DNA of 64,000 bases from an uncultured Pirellulales bacterium (GCA_964462515.1 CAYWXK010000013.1:4675-68674), one strand, 5' to 3'; positions 11,245-53,919 are shown, counted from the stretch's first letter. Made by a program: numbers and translations. Notes: a model not told the origin generated them from the sequence alone.

Positions 11245-11934
11245 ATGAAAAATAGTAAGGAATATTCCAAGAAAGTGCTGCGGTTATATCGCTCACTGAA
11301 ACCTAAATATCCAAAAGTTGAAAAGGTTGTCTATGAGGAGCCTGTGGACGCACTGGTTTACGGAATCATTGCCGAGAATATAACTGAGGCGGCCGCTCAA
11401 GCTGCGATGAAAAGATTGGCTGAACATTTTGTTGATTTGAACGATTTGCGTGTTTCACGACCCAAAGAGATTATTGAAGTCCTCGGTGAAAGCTCATCCG
11501 TTACACGAGCGATAGCTTCGTCACTTATCAAAGTTTTGAAAGCTATATTCGACGGATACCACAAAATTAGTCTGGAGGCACTGAAGAAAATCGGTAAGCG
11601 CCCGGCCAGACACGTCATCGAAAAAATAAATGATATCAGCCGCTTTGTGGTCGATTATTGTATGCTTACTGCGCTGCAGGGGCACGCTATACCGCTGACG
11701 CAGACAATGATTGAGTTCTTAAGACACAACAAGCTGGTTAACCCCAACGCCGACCAGGAACAGATAGCAGGCTTTTTGGCTAAACAAACCCCGGCCCCAA
11801 ATGCTTATGAGTTTTATACCCTTTTGCGCCGCACAAGCGAATCCAGCAAGAGAAGCACGGAAAGGAAAAAAGCTGCTTGCAAAACACAACCGAGAGCATC
11901 AACTGAAGCAGTAAAGCAGGAAACTGAAACATAA
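11245..11934 (+). CDS. hypothetical protein (basic, K/R-rich C-terminus)
   Basis: 229-aa ORF with a codon usage consistent with its neighbours. No recognisable motif. It occupies the position where truB often sits after rbfA. Confidence 0.45.
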   Translation: MKNSKEYSKKVLRLYRSLKPKYPKVEKVVYEEPVDALVYGIIAENITEAAAQAAMKRLAEHFVDLNDLRVSRPKEIIEVLGESSSVTRAIASSLIKVLKAIFDGYHKISLEALKKIGKRPARHVIEKINDISRFVVDYCMLTALQGHAIPLTQTMIEFLRHNKLVNPNADQEQIAGFLAKQTPAPNAYEFYTLLRRTSESSKRSTERKKAACKTQPRASTEAVKQETET

Positions 11935-24915: not shown

Positions 24916-24966
24916 GGTATAACAGATAAAGGACAGAAGTTAGCCTGTCTTTATCAGGCGGACTAA

Positions 24967-25086
24967 CCCCGCACCAATGGTTCGACAAGCTCACCATCCC
25001 GAGCGGAGTCGAGGGATGGTTCGCCCAAAGTCGCAAATGTCCGGTCTTTTACAAGAAATGCCCACTACGATTCAATTGGTGCGGGG
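24967..25086. repeat. inverted-repeat element with 'ccccgcaccaatgg ... ccaattggtgcgggg' terminal arms and internal hairpin
   Basis: 14-15 bp terminal inverted repeats enclose about 90 bp that contain the hairpin ccatcccgagcggagtcgagggatgg. The element lies between convergent genes (ferredoxin and proC) and is a member of a dispersed family (see findings). Confidence 0.75.
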
Positions 25087-25926
25087 TCAACTATTGCCGT
25101 AAGGCATGGACAAGCCCACTTTTGAAAGCTCGCGACTTCTATCGCAGGCACTTTTGATAGCTGCTGCTACCAGAGGGCCGAATTTGCCTTCCGCGAGGAT
25201 TTTTAGTGCGGCTTCGGTTGTTCCGCCGGGCGAGGTAACCTTTTGTCGAAGAATGGCAGGGCCTTCATTATTTTTGGCCGCCTCAACTGCAAGCATACCG
25301 GCGCCCTTTGCAGTTTGCAGAACCAGCTCTTTCGCTACCTCCTCCGATAAGCCCATCTCAACACCCACCTTTATCATTTCTTCCATCAGAAGAAAATAAT
25401 AAGCAGGCCCGCTGCCGCTTATTGCTGTTACCGCATCGAGCAAATCTTCGTCACTCACAACAACGGCCTTTCCGACCGATGAGAAAATCAACTTGGCTTT
25501 TTCGAGCATCGACTTTGCCTTCTGATTGGCGAATAGCGCACTTACTCCCTGGCCGATAAGAGCAGGAGTATTAGGCATAACGCGAACTATCGGGATGTCG
25601 CCGAGGACAGCAGCGATGGCGGCGACTCGCCTTCCTGCGACGATGGAAATGATAAGGGCATCTTTTTTGACTGCGCCTTTTATGCTATTGAGTGCGTCAG
25701 TTAGGTTCTGAGGCTTAATGCTTAAAACGAGGGTTTCAACCTTTGCAGCCAGTTCGGCGTTAGTGGTTGCAGGAGTAACATTATATTTTTGGGCGATGAA
25801 TTTGAGGCGGTCTGGTTTGATGTCGCTTATAAAGATATTTTTAGGTTCATAGAGCCTTGCCGTTATTATGCCCTTTATGAGGGCTTCCGCCATATTCCCG
25901 CTTCCTACAAAGCCGATTGTGTCCAT
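25087..25926 (-). CDS. proC: pyrroline-5-carboxylate reductase
   Basis: N-terminal NADP-binding IGFVGSGNMAEAL motif and the ProC dimerisation domain (GSGPAYYFLLMEEM...). Confidence 0.85.
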   Translation of the reverse strand: MDTIGFVGSGNMAEALIKGIITARLYEPKNIFISDIKPDRLKFIAQKYNVTPATTNAELAAKVETLVLSIKPQNLTDALNSIKGAVKKDALIISIVAGRRVAAIAAVLGDIPIVRVMPNTPALIGQGVSALFANQKAKSMLEKAKLIFSSVGKAVVVSDEDLLDAVTAISGSGPAYYFLLMEEMIKVGVEMGLSEEVAKELVLQTAKGAGMLAVEAAKNNEGPAILRQKVTSPGGTTEAALKILAEGKFGPLVAAAIKSACDRSRELSKVGLSMPYGNS

Positions 25927-46760: not shown

Positions 46761-48050
46761 CTATTTGAGCGGATTAAGCACTCGGCCGATAAACAGGATG
46801 CTGCCGGAATGGTTATCGCGAATCACAAACACAAAGGGATGGTCTGCTCTAAAGACCGGCGTCTGTGTTGGGCCAGCCGATGTTGTTTTCATTATTACCC
46901 CTGTTGCCGCTGCTGCCTCAGTGCCTTCCTCGCTTACATCGACATAAGCCTTGTGGATAACTGCTGAGATAAAAAGGTCTTTTTTGCCATTGATACCGGA
47001 AAAATCTGCCACGTCCGGTATGAAGGCATCTGTCATACCCATCGACTTGAGAACGTCGGCTAAACTAAACTGGCTGGTCATTTTGAACTTTGGAATCGAA
47101 ACGATAACCTCACATCTGCGAGGTTTAGCCAACCACCTGGAGAGGTTCTCCAGCGTAAGTGTTTTCTCAAAGGCGGCAAGACCATCGAATTTCTTAGGCA
47201 GCAATATAATCATTGAAAGCTCGTTATCAACATAAGGCAACTCAAGTTCTTGAAAGTCCTCGGTCTGCGTATAGTTGAAATCTGCTGTCTGGTTCATCAT
47301 TGGAACATCAATCTTGCTGCCAGTCTGCAGTGTAAATGGGGCCTGCTTCGTATTTTTTTCTTTGAATTGTCTTGCCCACTTGCCCTTAAAGTAAATAGCG
47401 TTGGTTAAAACCAGTCTGGTCATCGAATCCAGAACGCCCCTGGCAATCAGGTCCTTGATTTTATTGTTGGTCTTTTCCTCCACCCAGGCATTGATAGTCT
47501 GGCGTGCCATTTCGGTAGTGGTTACAAAATCAACTTCGTTGAGGCGCCCATCATAATCGGTTTTGATAAGATTCAAAAACTCTTCGAGAAATCCGTAACC
47601 TTTTTGGCCCCACAAAGCATTAGCAACGGCAAGCTCATACTTACCCTTTTTGCCTCTGGCGTTGAGGTCTTTTATGACTTTCCCGAATGCCGAGGAAAAT
47701 TGCTCATATTTCCAGGGTGCTCTTGTTTTTTCCTGTTTCTTAGCTGCCTGCATATCTATTGGAACCGTATAGGTGGGAAAACGCAGGACCTCAGCCATTT
47801 GGGAACCAGTTTGGCCTTGCGCACCGGCGTAAGCCATTGCCAGGGCCGTCGAGATGCTGTAGGGCGAAAAAAACAGGTTTTCTCCCTTGTCTCTCAGCCT
47901 TGCATACAGCTCAAGAGCGAATTTGCTGTTTCCCTGCACGATGGTTTTTCTTTCTTCATTTTCATTTAGGGTTTGGCCATCGCTGCCCAGGCAACAAGCT
48001 GCGATTACAATCACTGCTGTTGCGACTAATACAGATTTAATCGTTTTCAT
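46761..48050 (-). CDS. serpin (serine protease inhibitor) family protein, secreted
   Basis: Signal/lipoprotein-like N-terminus. Serpin core (FFSPYSISTALAMAYAGAQGQT). Hinge and reactive-centre loop GTEAAAATGVIMKTTSAG, then the serpin C-terminal signature FRADHPFVFVIRD...ILFIGRV. Confidence 0.85.
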   Translation of the reverse strand: MKTIKSVLVATAVIVIAACCLGSDGQTLNENEERKTIVQGNSKFALELYARLRDKGENLFFSPYSISTALAMAYAGAQGQTGSQMAEVLRFPTYTVPIDMQAAKKQEKTRAPWKYEQFSSAFGKVIKDLNARGKKGKYELAVANALWGQKGYGFLEEFLNLIKTDYDGRLNEVDFVTTTEMARQTINAWVEEKTNNKIKDLIARGVLDSMTRLVLTNAIYFKGKWARQFKEKNTKQAPFTLQTGSKIDVPMMNQTADFNYTQTEDFQELELPYVDNELSMIILLPKKFDGLAAFEKTLTLENLSRWLAKPRRCEVIVSIPKFKMTSQFSLADVLKSMGMTDAFIPDVADFSGINGKKDLFISAVIHKAYVDVSEEGTEAAAATGVIMKTTSAGPTQTPVFRADHPFVFVIRDNHSGSILFIGRVLNPLK

Positions 48051-48189
48051 ATTAGTGCCCTCTTATAGTTTCCTATCTGCCATTTATGCCTTTAACTGTC
48101 GGTCTATTAAGCTAATTATATGCTGCACCGTAGGAAAATAAACGGTTGGGCTGAAAATATTTGCCCAAATAGTGCCCCACCAACTCTCC

Positions 48190-48430
48190 TCAATGTCATT
48201 CCCGCACAGCCTGCCCTGAGCGAAGTCGAAGGGTCGTTAGCGGGAATCCATTTTTGTAGGGTGTGCTCAGCACACCATTTTCCTTATCGTTTAGCCCCGT
48301 TGCTTGCGACGGGGTGCGATTCATCTTTGTAGGTAGATTATTTTCACACGATGTAGCACGGGCTTCCAGCCCGTGCAAACACGGCCAAGCCTGTCCTGAG
48401 CGTAGTCGAAGGGATGGCCGTGTTACTTTC
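48190..48430. repeat. cluster of nested hairpin repeats including two copies of 'cctgagcgNagtcgaaggg'
   Basis: Outer inverted repeat cattcccgc...gcgggaatc (48197-48248) encloses ccctgagcgaagtcgaaggg. Hairpin ccccgttgcttgcgacgggg (48296-48314). Hairpin gcacgggcttccagcccgtgc (48356-48377). Inverted repeat acacggcca...tggccgtgt (48379-48424) encloses cctgagcgtagtcgaaggg. A third cctgagcgcagtcgaaggg copy lies at 52193-52211. Confidence 0.7.
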
Positions 48431-48571
48431 TTTACCTATAAACGTGAAGCACACCCTCTTGCGACGGGGGCTTTTATTTCCCTTGTAATCGTCCTAACCT
48501 TCGGTATAATGCTTTCTTACAATAACATTATTGGCGATTCCTCTTTGCTTTGAATAAAACAAAGGTGCGAT

Positions 48572-48781
48572 ATGGCAGAGAACATTTTGTATTACGGCGA
48601 TAACCTGGAAATACTCCGCCGCTATATCGAAAACGAATCCGTTGACCTTGTCTATCTTGACCCGCCTTTAAACTCGGGCAACGACCAGTTAAAGACAAAC
48701 ACCGCCCTGCAAATGGAAGCAGCAAAAATAGAGTTTAAGGTTATATGTTTAGCATTTATTTTGCAAATTCGGTTCTTTTAG
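48572..48781 (+). pseudogene. truncated N-terminal fragment of a beta-class (DPPY-type) N6/N4 DNA methyltransferase
   Basis: ENILYYGDNLEILRRYIENESVDLVYLDPPLNSGND matches the N-terminal 'cut-down' motif (LYxGD...IDLIxxDPPYN) of ParB-/M.RsrI-type MTases. The ORF ends after 69 aa, and no remainder of the gene is found downstream. Confidence 0.65.
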
Positions 48782-48836
48782 CTGATAATTTCTCTGGGAA
48801 AATGAAAACCGATGATTCAAAGGGCCTAAATTCAAA

Positions 48837-51362
48837 ATGTTACAAGTAAAACAACAAATACTGGCTGGCTTCAAGAGCTGTGGATATAAAAACAATCTTC
48901 TTAAAGAAAGATATCAGTATTTTGACGGCAAAGAAAGCAAAACTGCGGAAATAGTCGGCTTTAGTCAGCCAACATATAATTCCTCCACTGCGTGCATCGC
49001 TGCAATTGATAAAACTAAATTGAATGGAAACAGGATATCATCCTATCAATTGCTTGGATGTCCGGTGTTGTTGGTTTGTGATGACAGCGGCTTACAGTTC
49101 TGGAAAAACTCCGGTACTGATGTAATACTTCACGAAGAAGTCGACACGCAAAAATTGGCAGGATTTTTTAAAAAATATGAGAAGGATTTTTCACCACAAA
49201 GCATCTACAGAGCCAAAACAATCGGGCGTGTGAAGAAAGAGTATCAACTTAGTTTTGTCGATCGCGGCTTAATGTCAATTGTCGAAGAACAGGAAGGAAA
49301 ATATTTATCTGGTCTAACTGAAAGAATTATCAGATCGCTGCGATCAGATTGTGGGACAGTTAAAGAAGATAGCAAGTTTGAGAAGTGGCTTTTTCAGGCG
49401 GGCTTCTGGCTTATTGGTGCAAAGATATTAAAAGATAAAGGCGTTGAAGGATTCAAAACACTGGAAATTTCGTCGGTGAGGGATTTGGTTAATAAAATAC
49501 AGAGACATTATAATGCGGCACAAAAACTTGATATATCAAATACCGTGCAAAGAAAAGCACTTGAAAAAGTTGCAAGAGAAATTGTAGAGCCAGTATCAAG
49601 TTTTGCTCATCTTACGACCGAGTCATTGGCTTATGTTTATGAAAATACCCTTACAAGCAAAGACACCAGAAAGGTTTTGGGGACCCATGCAACGCCTTCA
49701 TGGCTTGTTAATTATATAGTCTGGGGGGAGCTAATTGACTGGATTGAAAATATCCCCCAAGAACAAAGAGTTATTCTTGAACCAGCTTGCGGTCATGCGC
49801 CATTTTTGACTGCTGGAGCAAGATTATTAGCCGACCCTCTTCTTTACAAAGGCGATGAAAAAGGCAGGCACGATTATCTCAAACGTCATCTGACTGGGAT
49901 AGACATGGACAGCTTTGCCGAAGAAATTGCCAGATTGGCACTTACTCTGGCGGATATCCCAAACCCCAATGGATGGAAAATCCAACATTCAGACATTTAT
50001 GAAGATGATATTTTAAAAAAGGCAGCTCAAAAAGCCACAATACTCTTTTGCAACCCACCCTTTGAAAACTTTTCCACAAAAGAGAAGCAGAGATACGGCA
50101 ATGCTATTACAACCGGCAATAAAGCCGCAGAAGTTCTTGTAAAAACATTGCCCTATATGCCAGCTAATTCTGTCTTCGGGATTATTTTACCACAGGGTTT
50201 TCTTCACAAAAGAAACCTTGCTGATTTGCGAAAGTATATTTTGGACAATTTTGAATTAAGAACTATCTGCAATCTGCCAGATAAAGTTTTTGCTAAATCA
50301 GGACATTTGTCCACTGTATTATTAGGCCGTAAAACTAAATCTAAAAAGAAAATTAATTATTTGAATATAACCAAAGCCAATCTTGAAAATTTCAAAAACA
50401 CCTATCAGGCAGCCGATGCAGAATTAGTCGGCCGAGATACATTTTATGAAGCGAAAGATTACAGTTTTAGGATTCCGGAATTAAAAGAAGTCTGGGATTA
50501 TTGCAGACACCTTCCTAAGCTCAAAAAATATGTAGAAATTGGTAGAGGGATTGAATACAAAAGTGGACTGGATATTGATGATATAATGAGACATACACAA
50601 TTTCCGGGTTCTAAAAAGGGGTTTTATTCTTATGAAAAAGATACATTAATAGAACGACTCCCAAAATTAGTCTGGCTAAATGTATCTGAAAAGGTAGTCA
50701 ATACTTACGCCAAAGGGATGATATGCCAACCCTTTATATTATTAAACCGAATTAGAAGCAGTAGAACTCCTTGGAGACTAAGAGCTTGGATAGACTTTGA
50801 GGGCCATCCATGCGGGAAGGCCTTTCTCGCGGTTTTCTCAAATAAAGACATTTCTTTATATTCTATTTGGGCCCTCTTAAATTCACCTTTTGCAAATGCT
50901 TACATGTATGACCATTGTATGGCTCAAGATAATAATGAGGGCATATTAAAAAACATGCCAGTAAATTTTGAAGGCAAGGACTTGTCAAAGATAGATTCTT
51001 TGGCACAAGAATATTTCACACTTAACAGTAGCGAATATGTATTACGCGATATAAAGCACCTTAATGAAAAGAAAAGGCAATGCCTGGTAGCTATTGATGC
51101 TGAAATACTGCGATTGTACAATTTACCCCCTCGCCTCGAAAAAACGCTGCTCGACTTTTTTGAAGACATTCAGCGCAAAGGTGTAGACTTCGAGTTTGAC
51201 AGATATTACCCGGAAGGTTTCGACTCTTATATCCCTTTGTATATGTATATATCTAAAGAGTTTCGAAATTCTTCCATCGAAAACGTTAAAAAGTGGATTG
51301 AAAATAACCGTTCACCTGAAGTGATTGAGGCATTTAAGACTGCTGCTAAAATTAAGAAGTAA
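48837..51362 (+). CDS. gamma-class N6-adenine DNA methyltransferase fused to a C-terminal TRD-like region and an unassigned ~130-aa N-terminal domain (type IIG/IIL-RM-like architecture)
   Basis: Motif X GTHATPSWLVNYIVW, motif I (SAM-binding) VILEPACGHAPFLTAG and motif IV ILFCNPPF. N6-Mtase C-terminal signature GIILPQGFLHKRNLADLRKYILDNFELRTICNLPDKVF. A further 350 aa of putative target-recognition region. Visibly AT-rich compared with neighbouring genes. Confidence 0.75.
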   Translation: MLQVKQQILAGFKSCGYKNNLLKERYQYFDGKESKTAEIVGFSQPTYNSSTACIAAIDKTKLNGNRISSYQLLGCPVLLVCDDSGLQFWKNSGTDVILHEEVDTQKLAGFFKKYEKDFSPQSIYRAKTIGRVKKEYQLSFVDRGLMSIVEEQEGKYLSGLTERIIRSLRSDCGTVKEDSKFEKWLFQAGFWLIGAKILKDKGVEGFKTLEISSVRDLVNKIQRHYNAAQKLDISNTVQRKALEKVAREIVEPVSSFAHLTTESLAYVYENTLTSKDTRKVLGTHATPSWLVNYIVWGELIDWIENIPQEQRVILEPACGHAPFLTAGARLLADPLLYKGDEKGRHDYLKRHLTGIDMDSFAEEIARLALTLADIPNPNGWKIQHSDIYEDDILKKAAQKATILFCNPPFENFSTKEKQRYGNAITTGNKAAEVLVKTLPYMPANSVFGIILPQGFLHKRNLADLRKYILDNFELRTICNLPDKVFAKSGHLSTVLLGRKTKSKKKINYLNITKANLENFKNTYQAADAELVGRDTFYEAKDYSFRIPELKEVWDYCRHLPKLKKYVEIGRGIEYKSGLDIDDIMRHTQFPGSKKGFYSYEKDTLIERLPKLVWLNVSEKVVNTYAKGMICQPFILLNRIRSSRTPWRLRAWIDFEGHPCGKAFLAVFSNKDISLYSIWALLNSPFANAYMYDHCMAQDNNEGILKNMPVNFEGKDLSKIDSLAQEYFTLNSSEYVLRDIKHLNEKKRQCLVAIDAEILRLYNLPPRLEKTLLDFFEDIQRKGVDFEFDRYYPEGFDSYIPLYMYISKEFRNSSIENVKKWIENNRSPEVIEAFKTAAKIKK

Positions 51363-51365
51363 AAT

Positions 51366-51842
51366 ATGTCAGGTTATTTATTCGATACTAATATTTGGTC
51401 GTATGCCTTTGGGCAAGCAACGTTTGTTACTGATAAAATCCAAAATCTTGAAAAATCGCAGATATATCTTTCAGCAATTGTGTGGGGTGAGGTGGTTTTT
51501 GGCGCTAAATCTAATCCCAAATTCAATTTCGATGAATACAGAGAATTTATTTACAAAGATAAACCTTTAATTTTGCCTATAGATGAACATGTCGCAGAAG
51601 TGTTCGGGTCGTTGAAAGCAGAAATATTTGAGAATAAATCTGTTAGAGCTATGAGATCAAACTCAGGGAGGGCTAGCTTATTTAAAAATCCGATACCAGC
51701 GAAAGATATGGGAGTCCATGAGAATGATTTGTGGTTAGTAGCCCAAGCTCTTGCATATAATCTTGTATTAATTACAAGTGATCGTATGCATACTATTTTG
51801 GAGTTAGCTCCTAAAGAACTTAAACACGAAATATGGCAATAA
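51366..51842 (+). CDS. PIN-domain nuclease (VapC-like)
   Basis: YLFDTNIWSYAF (first Asp), AIVWGEV (Glu) and ENDLWLVAQALAYNLVLITSD (distal Asp residues) match the PIN fold. The start is 4 nt after the MTase stop. No small antitoxin-like ORF is adjacent. Confidence 0.7.
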   Translation: MSGYLFDTNIWSYAFGQATFVTDKIQNLEKSQIYLSAIVWGEVVFGAKSNPKFNFDEYREFIYKDKPLILPIDEHVAEVFGSLKAEIFENKSVRAMRSNSGRASLFKNPIPAKDMGVHENDLWLVAQALAYNLVLITSDRMHTILELAPKELKHEIWQ

Positions 51843-52564
51843 ATTCAGCATGAAGGTTAAATTTGACCCGAAAGAATTTATGGCGGAAAAAAAGAATCGA
51901 AATAATGGGGACAAATAATGGGAACAGCCCGTTTTTCGACCAACTCCTCGTTTTTCCCCTTCGCCCAAACCAAAATTTACCCGCCGACTTGTCCGGCGTA
52001 GCGCAAGCGGAGTCGGAAGATTTATCGAAGGCGGGCTTGCCCGCCGTTCTTTCGCTTTAAGGCATCTCTCCGTAGGAGTAAAAAATTCAAAGCATAAACC
52101 CGATTGAAACTTGTTTCAGAAAGGGTTTAATTTGAATTTAAGGTGCATTTATGCACTGCCTTAAAGCAACTCTCTGTGGCCTCGGTGCCTGTCCTGAGCG
52201 CAGTCGAAGGGACCTCTGTGGCTAAATTTTTTTATGATATCGTTAGATTTTTATTGAATAAATAGGCATAATCTGGTATAATGCACACGCAATTGGAGGG
52301 AATAACTCCCGCCAGGAGCGGCAAGCTCGCGGAGAACCGCACGCTAAGGAACAGCAGTTCCATGAATTAGTCCATTTTAGCCGCAAAAAAGGTTCAGAAT
52401 GATAAAATCTTATGAAAAACGCAGTGCTTAATATACTTACTGAAAATTCGTGTTTATTCGTGGTTACTTTTGTGCCTTTTGTGATGAAAATAATCTGTGT
52501 TAATCTGCGTAATCTGTGGTTCCCTTTCTGTCTTTGTGTCTTGGTGGCTTTGTGGCTATGAGTC

Positions 52565-52795
52565 AATTATGCAAAACAAAGCCAATTTGCTGGACACTCA
52601 AATGAACGTAACCTCCGCCTATATAACCAGTTACCAATTACCAATAACCAATTACCAATATGCAAAACAAACCCAAACAAAGCCAATTTCCGGAGCAACA
52701 AAATGAACACAACCTTCTTATTAACAAATGATTATGAACAAATAACTATGAACAATGAACCAATAAAAACAAACCCAAACAAACCCAACTTGTAG
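52565..52795. repeat. A/C-rich low-complexity tandem repeats (caaacaaagccaatt units; taccaat heptamer x4)
   Basis: ttaccaattaccaataaccaattaccaata (52631-52660). Two imperfect copies of gcaaaacaaa(cccaaacaa)agccaattt...aaatgaac at about 52568 and 52662. caaacccaaacaaacccaac at 52770. Confidence 0.6.
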
Positions 52796-52935
52796 TGAGC
52801 TTGTCGAATCTATTTCAAACATAACCCTGCAAAAGTGGGGCATCGCCAGTTCTTGTTTATTGACAAAATCAAGGCTTTAGGATATTATATAATTAAGATT
52901 TGCTGCGAGGAATCTTTATTTGAAAGAGAAAGGCT

Positions 52936-53919
52936 ATGGACATAGGAAAAGACAGCCTGCTGCAGCGATATAAGTGGCACATTGTCATTATATGCGCGGC
53001 GCTGGTGATTGTAGTTTTGCTGGCACTTTTTACTGATATATTCCAGAGGTCAGAGAGATTGCAGAACCTGGTATGGCTGCTTGGCGCTTTAGTGTTTTTA
53101 AGCGCTCTGTTGACGATGCTGTCGAGGTCAATTAAGATGCTCGATGCGCTTCGAGATAACAGCTCAAAACTTGAACAAGTTACGGGTGCCCTTGAAAAAA
53201 TTCATGCGGGTTTAGCACAGATAAATCACAGCACCCGGCTCAGCGAGACTGCGAAAGCGATTGCGTTCCGCGACGTGGATAAACAATCTTTGCGAGAGGC
53301 CGTTTTTGACAAGCTTCAGCAGCACAATTTTGACGCGGCATACGATGTAATTGGAGAAATTGCAAAGCGTCCTGAATATAAAGACCTGGCCGATGAATTG
53401 CGCCAGCAGGCAGAAAACTATCAAACTGCAACTGAGCAGGAACGGATAAATCAGGTCATTACACACATTGAGACTCTGATGAACGAGTTCCAGTGGGTCA
53501 GGGCAAGCAGCCATATTGAAGGGTTAATCAATGCTAATCCGGACTGCGAAAGGGCAAAGGCGATGCGGCAAGAGCTGCTCGATAAGAAAGAGGGACGCAA
53601 AAGGACGTTGCTGGCTGACTGGGATGATGCCGTTAAACGGCAGGAAACAGACCGCGGTCTGGAGATTCTAAAAGAGCTTGATATGTACCTTACTCCTAAT
53701 GAGGCGTTAGCCCTTCAGGAGGCGGCGAGGGACGTTTTCCGCACAAAGCTGCACAATCTCGGCGTCCAGTTCTCTATTGCCGTTGCCGAGAAGCGGTGGA
53801 CCGAAGCTCTCGATATCGGCGGGCAGATTATCACCGACTTTCCCAACAGCAAAATGGCTGAGGAAATCCGCACTAAAATTGACATCCTCCAGCAAAAGGT
53901 CCAGTTGCAGCAGAGCTAA
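52936..53919 (+). CDS. membrane-anchored coiled-coil/TPR-like protein (hypothetical)
   Basis: Two N-terminal TM helices, then an alpha-helical region of about 250 aa. No catalytic motif. Confidence 0.45.
   Translation: MDIGKDSLLQRYKWHIVIICAALVIVVLLALFTDIFQRSERLQNLVWLLGALVFLSALLTMLSRSIKMLDALRDNSSKLEQVTGALEKIHAGLAQINHSTRLSETAKAIAFRDVDKQSLREAVFDKLQQHNFDAAYDVIGEIAKRPEYKDLADELRQQAENYQTATEQERINQVITHIETLMNEFQWVRASSHIEGLINANPDCERAKAMRQELLDKKEGRKRTLLADWDDAVKRQETDRGLEILKELDMYLTPNEALALQEAARDVFRTKLHNLGVQFSIAVAEKRWTEALDIGGQIITDFPNSKMAEEIRTKIDILQQKVQLQQS

Follow-up and report, generated by a model that had tools for sequence, protein, structure and literature searches.

What occupies the space between the serpin gene and gene p327 in the window (the whole stretch of 64,000 nucleotides analysed here, CAYWXK010000013.1:4675-68674 of assembly GCA_964462515.1, from an uncultured Pirellulales bacterium), and how was it brought there? 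The two genes are 4885 bp apart, and the islet between them contains a pair of genes coding for a DNA methyltransferase (MTase) and a PIN-domain nuclease, a truncated MTase open reading frame (ORF) ahead of this pair, and three copies of a short hairpin. A preliminary description had considered a turnover of restriction-modification (RM) and defence genes at one hotspot or, alternatively, a cassette resembling a miniature inverted-repeat transposable element (MITE), bracketed by the hairpins, that destroyed a resident beta-class MTase gene. The explanation that we favour, and that as a whole we consider probable, is that the core 48467-51939 represents one unit of a family of cassette platforms with portable conserved ends.

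The site was compared in relatives obtained from a scan of metagenome contigs carrying the downstream gene p327, which returned 80. In 28 relatives serpin and p327 are divergent neighbours separated by only 198 to 564 bp; the segment is missing from most of the relatives compared for its presence, and the two genes are adjacent there. The DNA alignment with relatives of about 75% identity stops at 48065/48076 and resumes at 52857. Positions 48066-52856 represent an insertion into the short divergent serpin/p327 spacer, a hotspot of defence genes in this lineage, which probably belongs to Sedimentisphaerales; the neighbours of the islet in the window are serpin, FtsW and p327. The turnover of defence genes at one hotspot is borne out, since the same site holds other RM or defence cargo in other relatives. 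Just upstream of p327 are found an LmuB-like SMC ATPase fused to an S24 peptidase in L134 (loci are cited by such numbers), Dcm and Vsr in L136, a type IIG RM enzyme (PADLOC, 1e-201) with a DUF6338 protein in L160, a beta-class MTase with a NucS-like nuclease in L193, an SDH_protease in L217 and three unknown genes in the closest relative, L138 (92-96% nucleotide identity). In L212 the serpin/p327 locus carries a HATPase_c_3 protein behind the same leader as in the window. None of the three genes of the L138 cargo (150-2539) has a match in Pfam or PADLOC; one, of 458 amino acids (aa), contains the PD-(D/E)xK-like stretch IVIIELKQP, and a membrane protein of 182 aa and a protein of 144 aa form a separate cassette behind a full copy of the junction element J described below. 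Conserved flanking core genes with nothing or with variable, defence-enriched content between them are what characterizes a chromosomal defence hotspot, and the AT-rich, foreign-looking cargo fits the same picture. The difference is that the cargo here lies in a portable platform that is also present at other loci; generic hotspots are not known to carry such a platform.

The base composition was checked gene by gene. The MTase gene of the cargo, designated MT841, has a GC content of 0.378 (0.343 at third codon positions, GC3) and the PIN gene 0.352 (GC3 0.289), for 0.4945 ± 0.030 (GC3 0.526 ± 0.056) in the 32 other genes of the window. With values of 0.35-0.38, about 4 standard deviations below host genes, the AT-richness noticed at the outset is confirmed, and a foreign origin of the segment is supported by its composition.

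The limits of the transferred unit are given by L215, where the same MTase-PIN pair is found at a different locus, adjoining AsnS and PIG-L genes: positions 7900-11363 of L215 align to 48467-51939 of the window at 87.6%. The unit begins with a conserved 5' segment (5'CS, 48467..48747, + strand) composed of a promoter-like site, a 5' untranslated region (5'UTR) and a leader ORF derived from a truncated MTase. The promoter scan places a TTGTAA-16-TATAAT site at 48483-48510. The window 5'CS is 88-93% identical to the 5'CS found at other loci (L207, L210, L215, L220, L224). It ends with JR, the right junction half (AAAATAGAGTTTAAGGTTATAT, 48725..48746, + strand), which contains a Shine-Dalgarno (SD)-like AAGGT(G/T)AT; the leader ORF terminates there as ...ATGGAAGCAGCAAAAATAGAGTTTAAGGT(G/T)ATAT(GA), and the similarity to L212, whose cargo is different, ends at 48747, at JR. 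Downstream of the cargo, the left junction half JL (ATGAAGGTTAAATTTGACCCGAAAGAATTTATGGCGGAAAA, 51850..51891, + strand) matches the full J of L138, L210 and L220 and is followed by the conserved 3' segment (3'CS, 51901..51965, + strand), ATAATGGGGAC..ATAATGGGAACAGCCCGTTTTTCGA then ..TTTTTCCCCTTCGCC, which is conserved in 7 arrays. The 3'CS sequence reads ATAATGGGAACAGCCCGTTTTTCGA...CCTTGCCTACTCCGCC, and the identity of the window with L215 ends within it at 51939. One of the seven is the "type B" array L217, where the MTase fragment is cut at a different codon.

The full J, ATGAAnCTTCAATTTGACCCGAAAGATTTTATGGCGGAAAAGATAGAGTTTAAGGTGATAT, is located between cassettes in L138, L210 (two copies) and L220, and the single-cassette arrays, including that of the window, have the left half of J and then the 3'CS. 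J contains the SD-like sequence AAGGTGAT and reads as a mini-ORF of about 20 codons (MKLQFDPKDFMAEKIEFKVI and a stop) that terminates just before the next start codon. No secondary structure was detected in it, the consensus fold of six J or half-J copies giving -1.9 kcal/mol and 4 pairs, none of them covarying. J, its halves and the 3'CS were found only in these arrays, and J was not found in viral contigs. The platform would accordingly comprise a conserved 5'CS (a predicted strong promoter, then a 5'UTR and a leader ORF in which the first ~39 codons of a beta-class MTase are fused to a conserved tail), one cargo cassette or several in the same orientation, a J of about 55 nt between cassettes that may supply an SD-like site and a mini-ORF ending before the next gene, and a 3'CS of about 60 nt. 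The same arrangements are present in independent assemblies from JGI, ENA, NCBI and Logan.

The leader ORF (69 aa, 48572..48781, + strand) is the sequence that had been taken for a decayed MTase gene. Models of beta-class MTases are matched over their N-terminal ~40-55 residues only (PADLOC MTase_III/II, about 1e-7; NCBIfam PRK11524, 8.6e-7), and these matches confirm that it encodes nothing of an MTase other than the N-terminus: codons 1 to ~39 correspond to the start of the enzyme (LYYGDNLEIL...DLVYLDPPLNS) and precede a conserved tail, GNDQLKTNTALQMEAAKIEFKVI. With residues 1-~39 as its sole MTase-like part, the fragment is MTase-derived and is not a beta-class (N6_N4) MTase gene; no remainder of the MTase was found downstream of it. 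The homologue search recovered 288 matches, of which the best 120 are all 40-115 aa long, and many of these 120 are the same 58-aa ORF, MAENVLYYGDNLEILRRYIEDESVDLVHLDPPFNSGNDQLKTNTALQMEAAKIEFKVI followed by a stop codon, with 84-93% identity. The usual stop after codon 58 has been lost in the window. The ORFs of this kind that have a named source come from Sedimentisphaerales. An 80-aa query built from longer fragments gave 2411 matches at E <= 1e-5, the top 120 being all of at most 140 aa, and no full-length parent was present among the top 120 of either search, only fragments of up to 140 aa.

This 58-aa ORF and its junction occur at at least five other loci with other cargo. The ORF precedes a 1027-aa SIR2-nSTAND-TPR protein in L207-209 and L225, three unknown genes in L210/211 and the genes AbiTii-AbiTii-Fic in L220-222. 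The destruction in situ of a resident gene, which would have left a unique local pseudogene, is contradicted by the presence of the same truncated ORF and junction ahead of unrelated cargo elsewhere; the "decayed MTase" is a conserved promoter-plus-leader segment of the platform. A frameshift is present in the ORF of L224/L225, and that of L220 begins at TTG; the ORF would be a relic that supplies a promoter and translation signals. Thousands of ORFs of at most 140 aa consist solely of an N-terminus of this MTase family, many of them on short contigs, which points to the conserved 5' segment as a site where assemblies often break and as an origin of spurious annotations as "DNA methyltransferase, partial". 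A further protein, P0153 (L219, 10001-10417), joins an 80-aa MTase N-terminus to the last ~55 aa of a tyrosine recombinase. It was considered as a link to a recombinase and rejected: its context is an unrelated transposase-rich, conjugative-element-like region of another organism, with no connection to the platforms, and the fusion is probably a rearrangement scar.

How a cassette passes from one platform to another could be followed by a mosaic test, in which the window 5'CS was compared with those of L212 (same locus, other cassette) and L215 (same cassette, other locus). The window agrees with L212 at informative sites as far as 48653 and with L215 from 48662 on. The parent switches between 48653 and 48662, and the cassette therefore brought the last third of the 5'CS along, by a crossover inside the MTase fragment. 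These sites document an exchange by homologous recombination in which the conserved segment would have acted as homology arm, and we infer that homologous exchange is the main route of cassette movement between platforms. All Logan unitigs with the identical MTase break at 48610, which fits population variation at this point. A comparable use of a conserved 5' gene fragment as portable homology, behind which new modules recombine and older conserved pieces are left in truncated form, is known from the displaced orphan module arrays of polymorphic toxin loci (CdiA-CT, Rhs) and from the hsdS/mod shufflons. Here the fragment differs in that it is not fused in frame and ends in a stop codon, and the cargo is unrelated to the MTase.

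The neat halving of J at the ends of arrays is what a site-specific system would be expected to produce, and it leads to another model, in which J acts as an att site and a circular JL-core-JR cassette is captured, as in integrons, by an empty platform (5'CS-core-3'CS). Recombination would occur at a shared core of about GGCGGAAAAGATA, the recombinase would be encoded elsewhere and homologous exchange would be secondary. Single-cassette arrays (window, L215, L207) do begin with exactly 5'CS+JR and end with exactly JL+3'CS, and multi-cassette arrays (L138, L210, L220) have the full JL+JR between cassettes, which are co-oriented behind one promoter. The cargo is rich in defence genes, as integron cassettes are reported to be (bioRxiv 10.1101/2024.07.02.601719). 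We regard such a capture as possible but doubtful, because the only traceable exchange crossed inside the MTase fragment and not at the core of J, and neither an empty platform nor a circular form was seen. No integrase adjoins any array: the Pfam tables contain no PF00589 gene next to one, although IntI is not required for a cluster of attC sites lacking integron-integrases (CALIN). J was also examined as an attC-like hairpin and rejected, with a fold of -1.9 kcal/mol, no covariation and no GTTRRRY core. The arrays share with integrons and CALIN mostly promoterless, co-oriented cassettes behind a common promoter borne by a 5' segment, a repeated separator element, defence genes in the cargo and a content that differs between close strains. 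They differ by the lack of an adjacent integrase, by a J of ~55 nt devoid of hairpin and R/L boxes, by a 5' segment that is a truncated MTase gene instead of intI/attI, and by a traceable exchange that was homologous.

The same conserved elements might instead be only the cis-regulatory parts of a vertically inherited operon family and recur by common descent. The SD-like AAGGTGAT in J, the mini-ORF stop located 0-30 nt before the next start codon, the promoter-like site 48483-48510 and a terminator-like hairpin at 52030-52045 are all regulatory in appearance. Common descent would however not place the same cassette at different loci (window, L215), nor different cassettes at the same locus (window, L212/L138, L217); in most relatives nothing is inserted here, the cargo GC is far below that of the host and the 5'CS is a mosaic. 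This makes descent as an operon very improbable. A regulatory role and mobility are not mutually exclusive, and it is as the sole explanation that the cis-regulatory one is contradicted.

The hairpins had been given the role of boundaries. The sequence CCTGAGCGNAGTCGAAGGG occurs in exact form three times in the window, always on the + strand (0.02 matches expected by chance); the exact pattern CCTGAGCG[A/T/C]AGTCGAAGGG is located at 48215-48233, 48395-48413 and 52193-52211, so that the three copies reported at the outset are real, two of their start coordinates having been off by one. The nesting described for two of them also holds: copies 1 and 2 lie in the loops of 8-10-bp stems, and copy 3 does not. 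Copy 1 (AGCCTGCCCTGAGCGAAGTCGAAGG, 25 nt, 48208..48232, + strand) is enclosed by the arms cattcccgc (48197-48205) and gcgggaatc (48240-48248) of its host hairpin, with a folding z-score of -1.5. Copy 2 (AGCCTGTCCTGAGCGTAGTCGAAGG, 48388..48412, + strand) is enclosed by acacggcca (48379-48387) and tggccgtgt (48415-48423), which belong to a host stem of 10 bp (48378-48387/48414-48423), and its DNA fold reaches -12.7 kcal/mol (z = -4.7). Copy 3 (GCCTGTCCTGAGCGCAGTCGAAGG, 24 nt, 52187..52210, + strand) has no enclosing inverted repeat (z = -0.3) and is inserted in a direct repeat of the ctctgtggc type with a period of 9 nt.

All three hairpins lie outside the shared unit 48467-51939, and the motif is not located at the ends of arrays elsewhere; therefore the cassette is not delimited by hairpins. 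Each of them is a separate indel of 24-25 nt, polymorphic between close strains, and the closest relative with different cargo has no hairpin copies. A MITE-like insertion is not supported either, no terminal inverted repeats and no target-site duplication being present. In the scenario where a hairpin-bounded, MITE-like cassette destroyed a resident beta-class MTase gene and left a unique decaying pseudogene, hairpins on both sides of the cargo and an ORF that retains only the MTase N-terminus are expected, and both are seen. Other truncation points also exist (aa 54 in L217, about aa 67 in L216), so that an ancestral full-length gene behind the promoter is plausible. We nevertheless find this scenario scarcely credible: the same truncation and junction recur with other cargo at no fewer than five further loci, nothing of the 3' part of the MTase is present downstream, and the arrays of L138, L212 and L215 lack the corresponding hairpins. 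The hairpins are unrelated to the cassette boundaries and constitute one of several families of small modules in the junk DNA of the hotspot.

The cargo of the window consists of two genes. MT841 (48837..51362, + strand) is an 841-aa gamma-class N6-adenine DNA MTase with its own target-recognition domain (N6_Mtase, E = 3e-18). Motif I, EPACGHAPF (315-323), and motif IV, NPPF (406-409), are invariant in its family, which comprises proteins of 840-875 aa from many phyla, conserved over their full length down to 42% identity. The fold matches CamA, M.BseCI, MmeI, PglX and HsdM, and also DrdV. The enzyme shares the invariant NPPF and motif I with monomeric gamma-class MTases that have a fused target-recognition domain (CamA, M.BseCI), type IIL/IIG enzymes (MmeI, DrdV, BpuSI) and PglX of BREX; it differs from the CamA, MmeI and PglX types by an extra N-terminal alpha/beta domain of ~115 aa and by a nuclease candidate that is a separate PIN protein. 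A nuclease function of the N-terminal domain finds no support so far: no PD-(D/E)xK domain was recognised in the enzyme, and these 115 aa show no invariant D...ExK. The second gene (51366..51842, + strand) starts 4 nt after the MTase stop and codes for a PIN-domain nuclease of 158 aa (Pfam PIN, E = 7.6e-12). The acidic tetrad, whose role is established for PIN/VapC domains, is intact as read from the sequence (D7, E42, D121, D139).

The synteny of the two genes is kept at 55% MTase identity in L226-233 (0-nt gap) and, at 26-28%, on plasmids of Agrobacterium and Sinorhizobium, whose pair is annotated "N-6 DNA methylase" and "PIN domain-containing protein" and, on the Agrobacterium plasmid, stands beside Shedu. 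Judged by this synteny, the two-gene module is conserved from Planctomycetota to Rhizobiaceae plasmids. It would serve for defence or addiction in the manner of an RM system: methylation would mark the cell's own DNA, and the putative nuclease effector would be the PIN protein. The PIN protein falls in a cluster of 17 members at 90% identity or above, one of which, labelled Candidatus Woesebacteria, is on a contig of 4340 nt; P0225, an MTase probably encoded on this contig too, shares only 70% identity with MT841. The PIN protein thus appears to be much better conserved than the MTase beside it, which would fit a diversification of the target-recognition domain.

The pair might have no anti-phage function and be an addiction module of the toxin-antitoxin type, with a PIN RNase toxin restrained by the MTase, or else an epigenetic regulator or orphan MTase. 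The best named match of the PIN protein is VapC (NCBIfam, 5.6e-11), only 0-5 nt separate the two genes, a tight coupling, and the pair is without a PADLOC model. We hold this to be unlikely, as no VapB-like antitoxin is present: the partner upstream of the PIN gene is not a small VapB, it is a DNA MTase of 840-870 aa with a target-recognition domain, paired with PIN across phyla, and the pair is always found among defence genes, in the cassette platforms or beside Shedu on the Agrobacterium plasmid. The question concerns the function of the cargo only, and either answer is compatible with the platform model.

Several observations weigh against the platform explanation as a whole. No recombinase is linked to the platforms, and neither an empty platform (which would have the 5'CS ...ATGGAAGCGGCAAAG joined to ATAATGGGGAC and a leader reading ...LQMEAAKIMGTNNG) nor a circular cassette was seen. 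The leader ORF has a ratio of nonsynonymous to synonymous polymorphism (pN/pS) of about 0.3, which is compatible with a coding function. About 10 independent arrays were examined, all on metagenome contigs, and repeats can cause chimeric joins in such contigs; as to these, independent assemblies reproduce several of the arrangements. The defence role proposed for the MTase-PIN pair is read from genomic context only, the pair having no PADLOC model and the PIN protein matching no PADLOC family. Finally, three of the four hairpin copies of the window cluster at the islet, which may reflect some link to the hotspot.

Each hairpin copy is a discrete module of 24-25 nt, (A)GCCTGY + CCT-GAGCGNAGTCGA-AGG, in which a 4-bp stem closes a conserved loop with a GCGNAG(T)C mini-hairpin. 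In the junk DNA that surrounds the hotspot, such modules have been gained or lost in the loops of host hairpins and in simple repeats. At least 120 stretches of species-representative genomes contain the exact 19-mer; they belong to at least 15 phyla, cultured isolates included. It is also present in at least 120 stretches of viral contigs. The matches have common 5' flanks outside the search pattern (GCCTGY, TGTCAY or GTTCGY), and the occurrences are therefore homologous and not chance matches. The motif is rare in relatives of this lineage (8 matches in 734 kb, about 1 per 90 kb). Pairs 1-18, 2-17 and 3-16 display compensatory changes among variant copies. Covariation was tested on occurrences of N4-GAGC-N2-4-GTCGA-N4 after setting aside the stems selected by the search itself (n=123): 43 of the 123 non-selected stems have 4 Watson-Crick pairs, distributed among 17 stem types, for a mean of 2.7 and a maximum of 9 in shuffles and 1/100 with a scrambled control core. 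The module is thus a structured element, as RNA or as single-stranded DNA, where covarying pairs close a conserved loop. The one base in it that varies freely (A 58, G 32, C 23, T 19) is located at the predicted apex of GCG-N-AG(T)C.

The gain or loss of modules is precise. L217 lacks exactly the 25 nt of copy 1 (cccgcac/gtcgtta), the simple host hairpin being left without target-site duplication, and L138 lacks exactly the 24 nt of copy 3 (contiguous tggcctcggtg/acctctgtggc). Copy 2 is present in L212 and absent from L217 together with the entire 155-nt module that contains it. In L215 one hairpin module is nested at the loop apex of another: at 11735-11790, CCTGTCCTGAGCG[GCCTGTGGTGAGCAAGGTCGAACCA]AGTCTCGAAGGG, a sister module with a GGT/ACC stem lies exactly at the loop apex of a CCT/AGG module, itself in the loop of the GGAAC/GTTCC hairpin of a small-RNA-like module described below. 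Host stems of at least 8 bp flank 14 of the 258 unique module instances, for 0.5 expected; they are enriched yet in a minority, and an obligatory position in a loop is ruled out. The fourth copy of the window, degenerate (CCCGAGCGGAGTCGAGGGA, 24998..25016, + strand), has undergone the compensatory change T3->C / A16->G and is enclosed by a long inverted repeat (24966-25088). The region 24964-25090 (DNA fold -24.7 kcal/mol, z = -3.4) has a 13-bp inverted repeat, ccccgcaccaatg...attggtgcgggg, around TTCGACAAGCTCACC, an inverse-type relative of the hairpin module, and then the degenerate hairpin.

No protein cluster is enriched within 1.5 kb of the motif in 120 loci, and its orientation relative to neighbouring genes is unbiased (38 vs 31). 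Rfam gave no match at gathering score in the whole window and, at E <= 10 on 47900-53000, only chance matches to eukaryotic families; a hammerhead or other ribozyme reading of CUGA...GAA was rejected, its core being unfit and without Rfam match, and the search for tRNA and tmRNA found none. A resemblance of the hairpin to the D-arm of tRNA-Tyr/Ser may also exist. Neither the motif sequence nor its spurious peptides (LSEVEG, PERSRR and others) led to anything pertinent in the literature, and neither an Rfam family nor a paper describing the module was found, a negative that does not prove novelty. Searches on short tandemly repeated repetitive (STRR) sequences, mini-hairpins and Sedimentisphaerales defence cassettes yielded only a general review of mini-hairpins and papers on integrons and defence. 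In other phyla the 19-mer often abuts or interrupts heptamer repeats, (CAACATT)n, (GATGAAG)n or (CCCAATT)n, which resemble the STRR repeats of cyanobacteria (L018, L042, L073, L082, L098, L107).

Repetitive extragenic palindromic (REP) sequences are species-specific, and REP/REPIN elements, which are associated with RAYT genes coding for a Y1 transposase, reach hundreds of copies per genome. The hairpin modules are likewise short, intergenic, structure-forming and strain-variable in presence, as are MITEs. They differ by a size of 24-25 nt and a low copy number in the lineage, by the conservation of the 19-mer in the phyla and viral contigs mentioned above, by the absence of a GTAG/GTGG head, replaced by the 5' flanks already given, and, with respect to MITEs, by the absence of terminal inverted repeats and target-site duplication. 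The loop core GCG-N-AG(T)C of the module has the GNA triloop layout of the GCGNAGC mini-hairpin of DNA (PMC13037366), with its variable base at the predicted apex; the core differs by an extra T and sits in a larger conserved loop (GA...GA) with a covarying 4-bp stem. Nearest-neighbour folding does not reproduce the stability of the mini-hairpin core (-0.5 kcal/mol).

The remainder of the islet is made of repeat-dense non-coding flanks, about 0.5 kb on the left and 1.1 kb on the right, as had been noticed at the outset. The left flank (48066..48466, no strand assigned) is a strain-variable spacer outside the shared unit, built of hairpin copies 1 and 2 and of REP-like units of the GTAG+hairpin type; a 96-nt module is missing from it in L212, and the 155-nt module in L217. 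One REP-like unit, GTAG+GGTGTGCTCAGCACACC...CCTTATCGTTTAGCCCC at 48255-48300, which translates as GRVCSAHHFPYRLAP, also interrupts the MTase fragment P0036, and therefore other small module families too insert into platforms.

The right flank (51966..52856, no strand assigned) is a patchwork of dispersed lineage-specific repeat modules that recur in L130, L138, L207, L210, L215 and L217; it includes the terminator-like hairpin 52030-52045, a promoter with a small-RNA-like module at 52247-52408 and short tandem repeats. This module has a strong promoter-like TTGAAT-17-TATAAT site with an upstream TG at 52254-52282, followed by about 90 nt, and copies of it were found at L138 3845-4005, L215 11640-11830, L217 10790-10900 and L130 4408-4532 (reverse strand). 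Its hairpins differ in sequence and keep their positions (GGAGGGAATAACTCCC vs GCCCCGGAATCGGGGC), and GGAACAGCAGTTCC is conserved; without an Rfam match, it could be an unannotated small RNA. Positions 52446-52790 are full of tandem repeats of 7-14 nt, such as (ACCAATT)x4.9 and (ATGAACA)x3.9. Repeats spaced by ~101 nt at 52563-52791, containing AAAACAAAGCCAATTT / AAACAAACCCAAAC and terminating in GTAGTGAGCTTGTCGAA, recur at L207 12320-12455, L210 11121-11272, L215 12171-12280 and L217 11060-11290; they lie downstream of several arrays and just upstream of p327 and form a lineage-specific family.

It is conceivable, if on balance improbable, that at least one of two undescribed systems is real. 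One would be a capture system without attC hairpins or an adjacent integrase, with 5'CS, J and 3'CS as attachment sites and the truncated MTase as an attI-like platform, that would accumulate and shuffle defence genes in Sedimentisphaerales in an integron-like manner; the other, an ultra-small mobile module, the GAGCGNAGTCGA hairpin, mobilised in trans into hairpin loops and simple repeats without target duplication. A mechanism is needed for a 19-mer that is conserved in non-coding DNA from bacteria of the Candidate Phyla Radiation (CPR) to cyanobacteria and whose presence differs so precisely between close strains, and a trans-acting enzyme or a universal structural constraint are possible causes of its conservation.

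The MTase-PIN pair is conserved across phyla and absent from current defence catalogues. Frequent breakage at the 5'CS, if true, would explain a large class of "partial DNA methyltransferase" calls and of contig breaks in sediment metagenomes. Portable homology segments offer a concrete route for the turnover of defence islands between loci, and, should the platform be real, its 58-aa leader, J and 3'CS would provide a sequence handle on the defence cassettes of a poorly studied phylum, several of which (L210, L138) belong to no known family.

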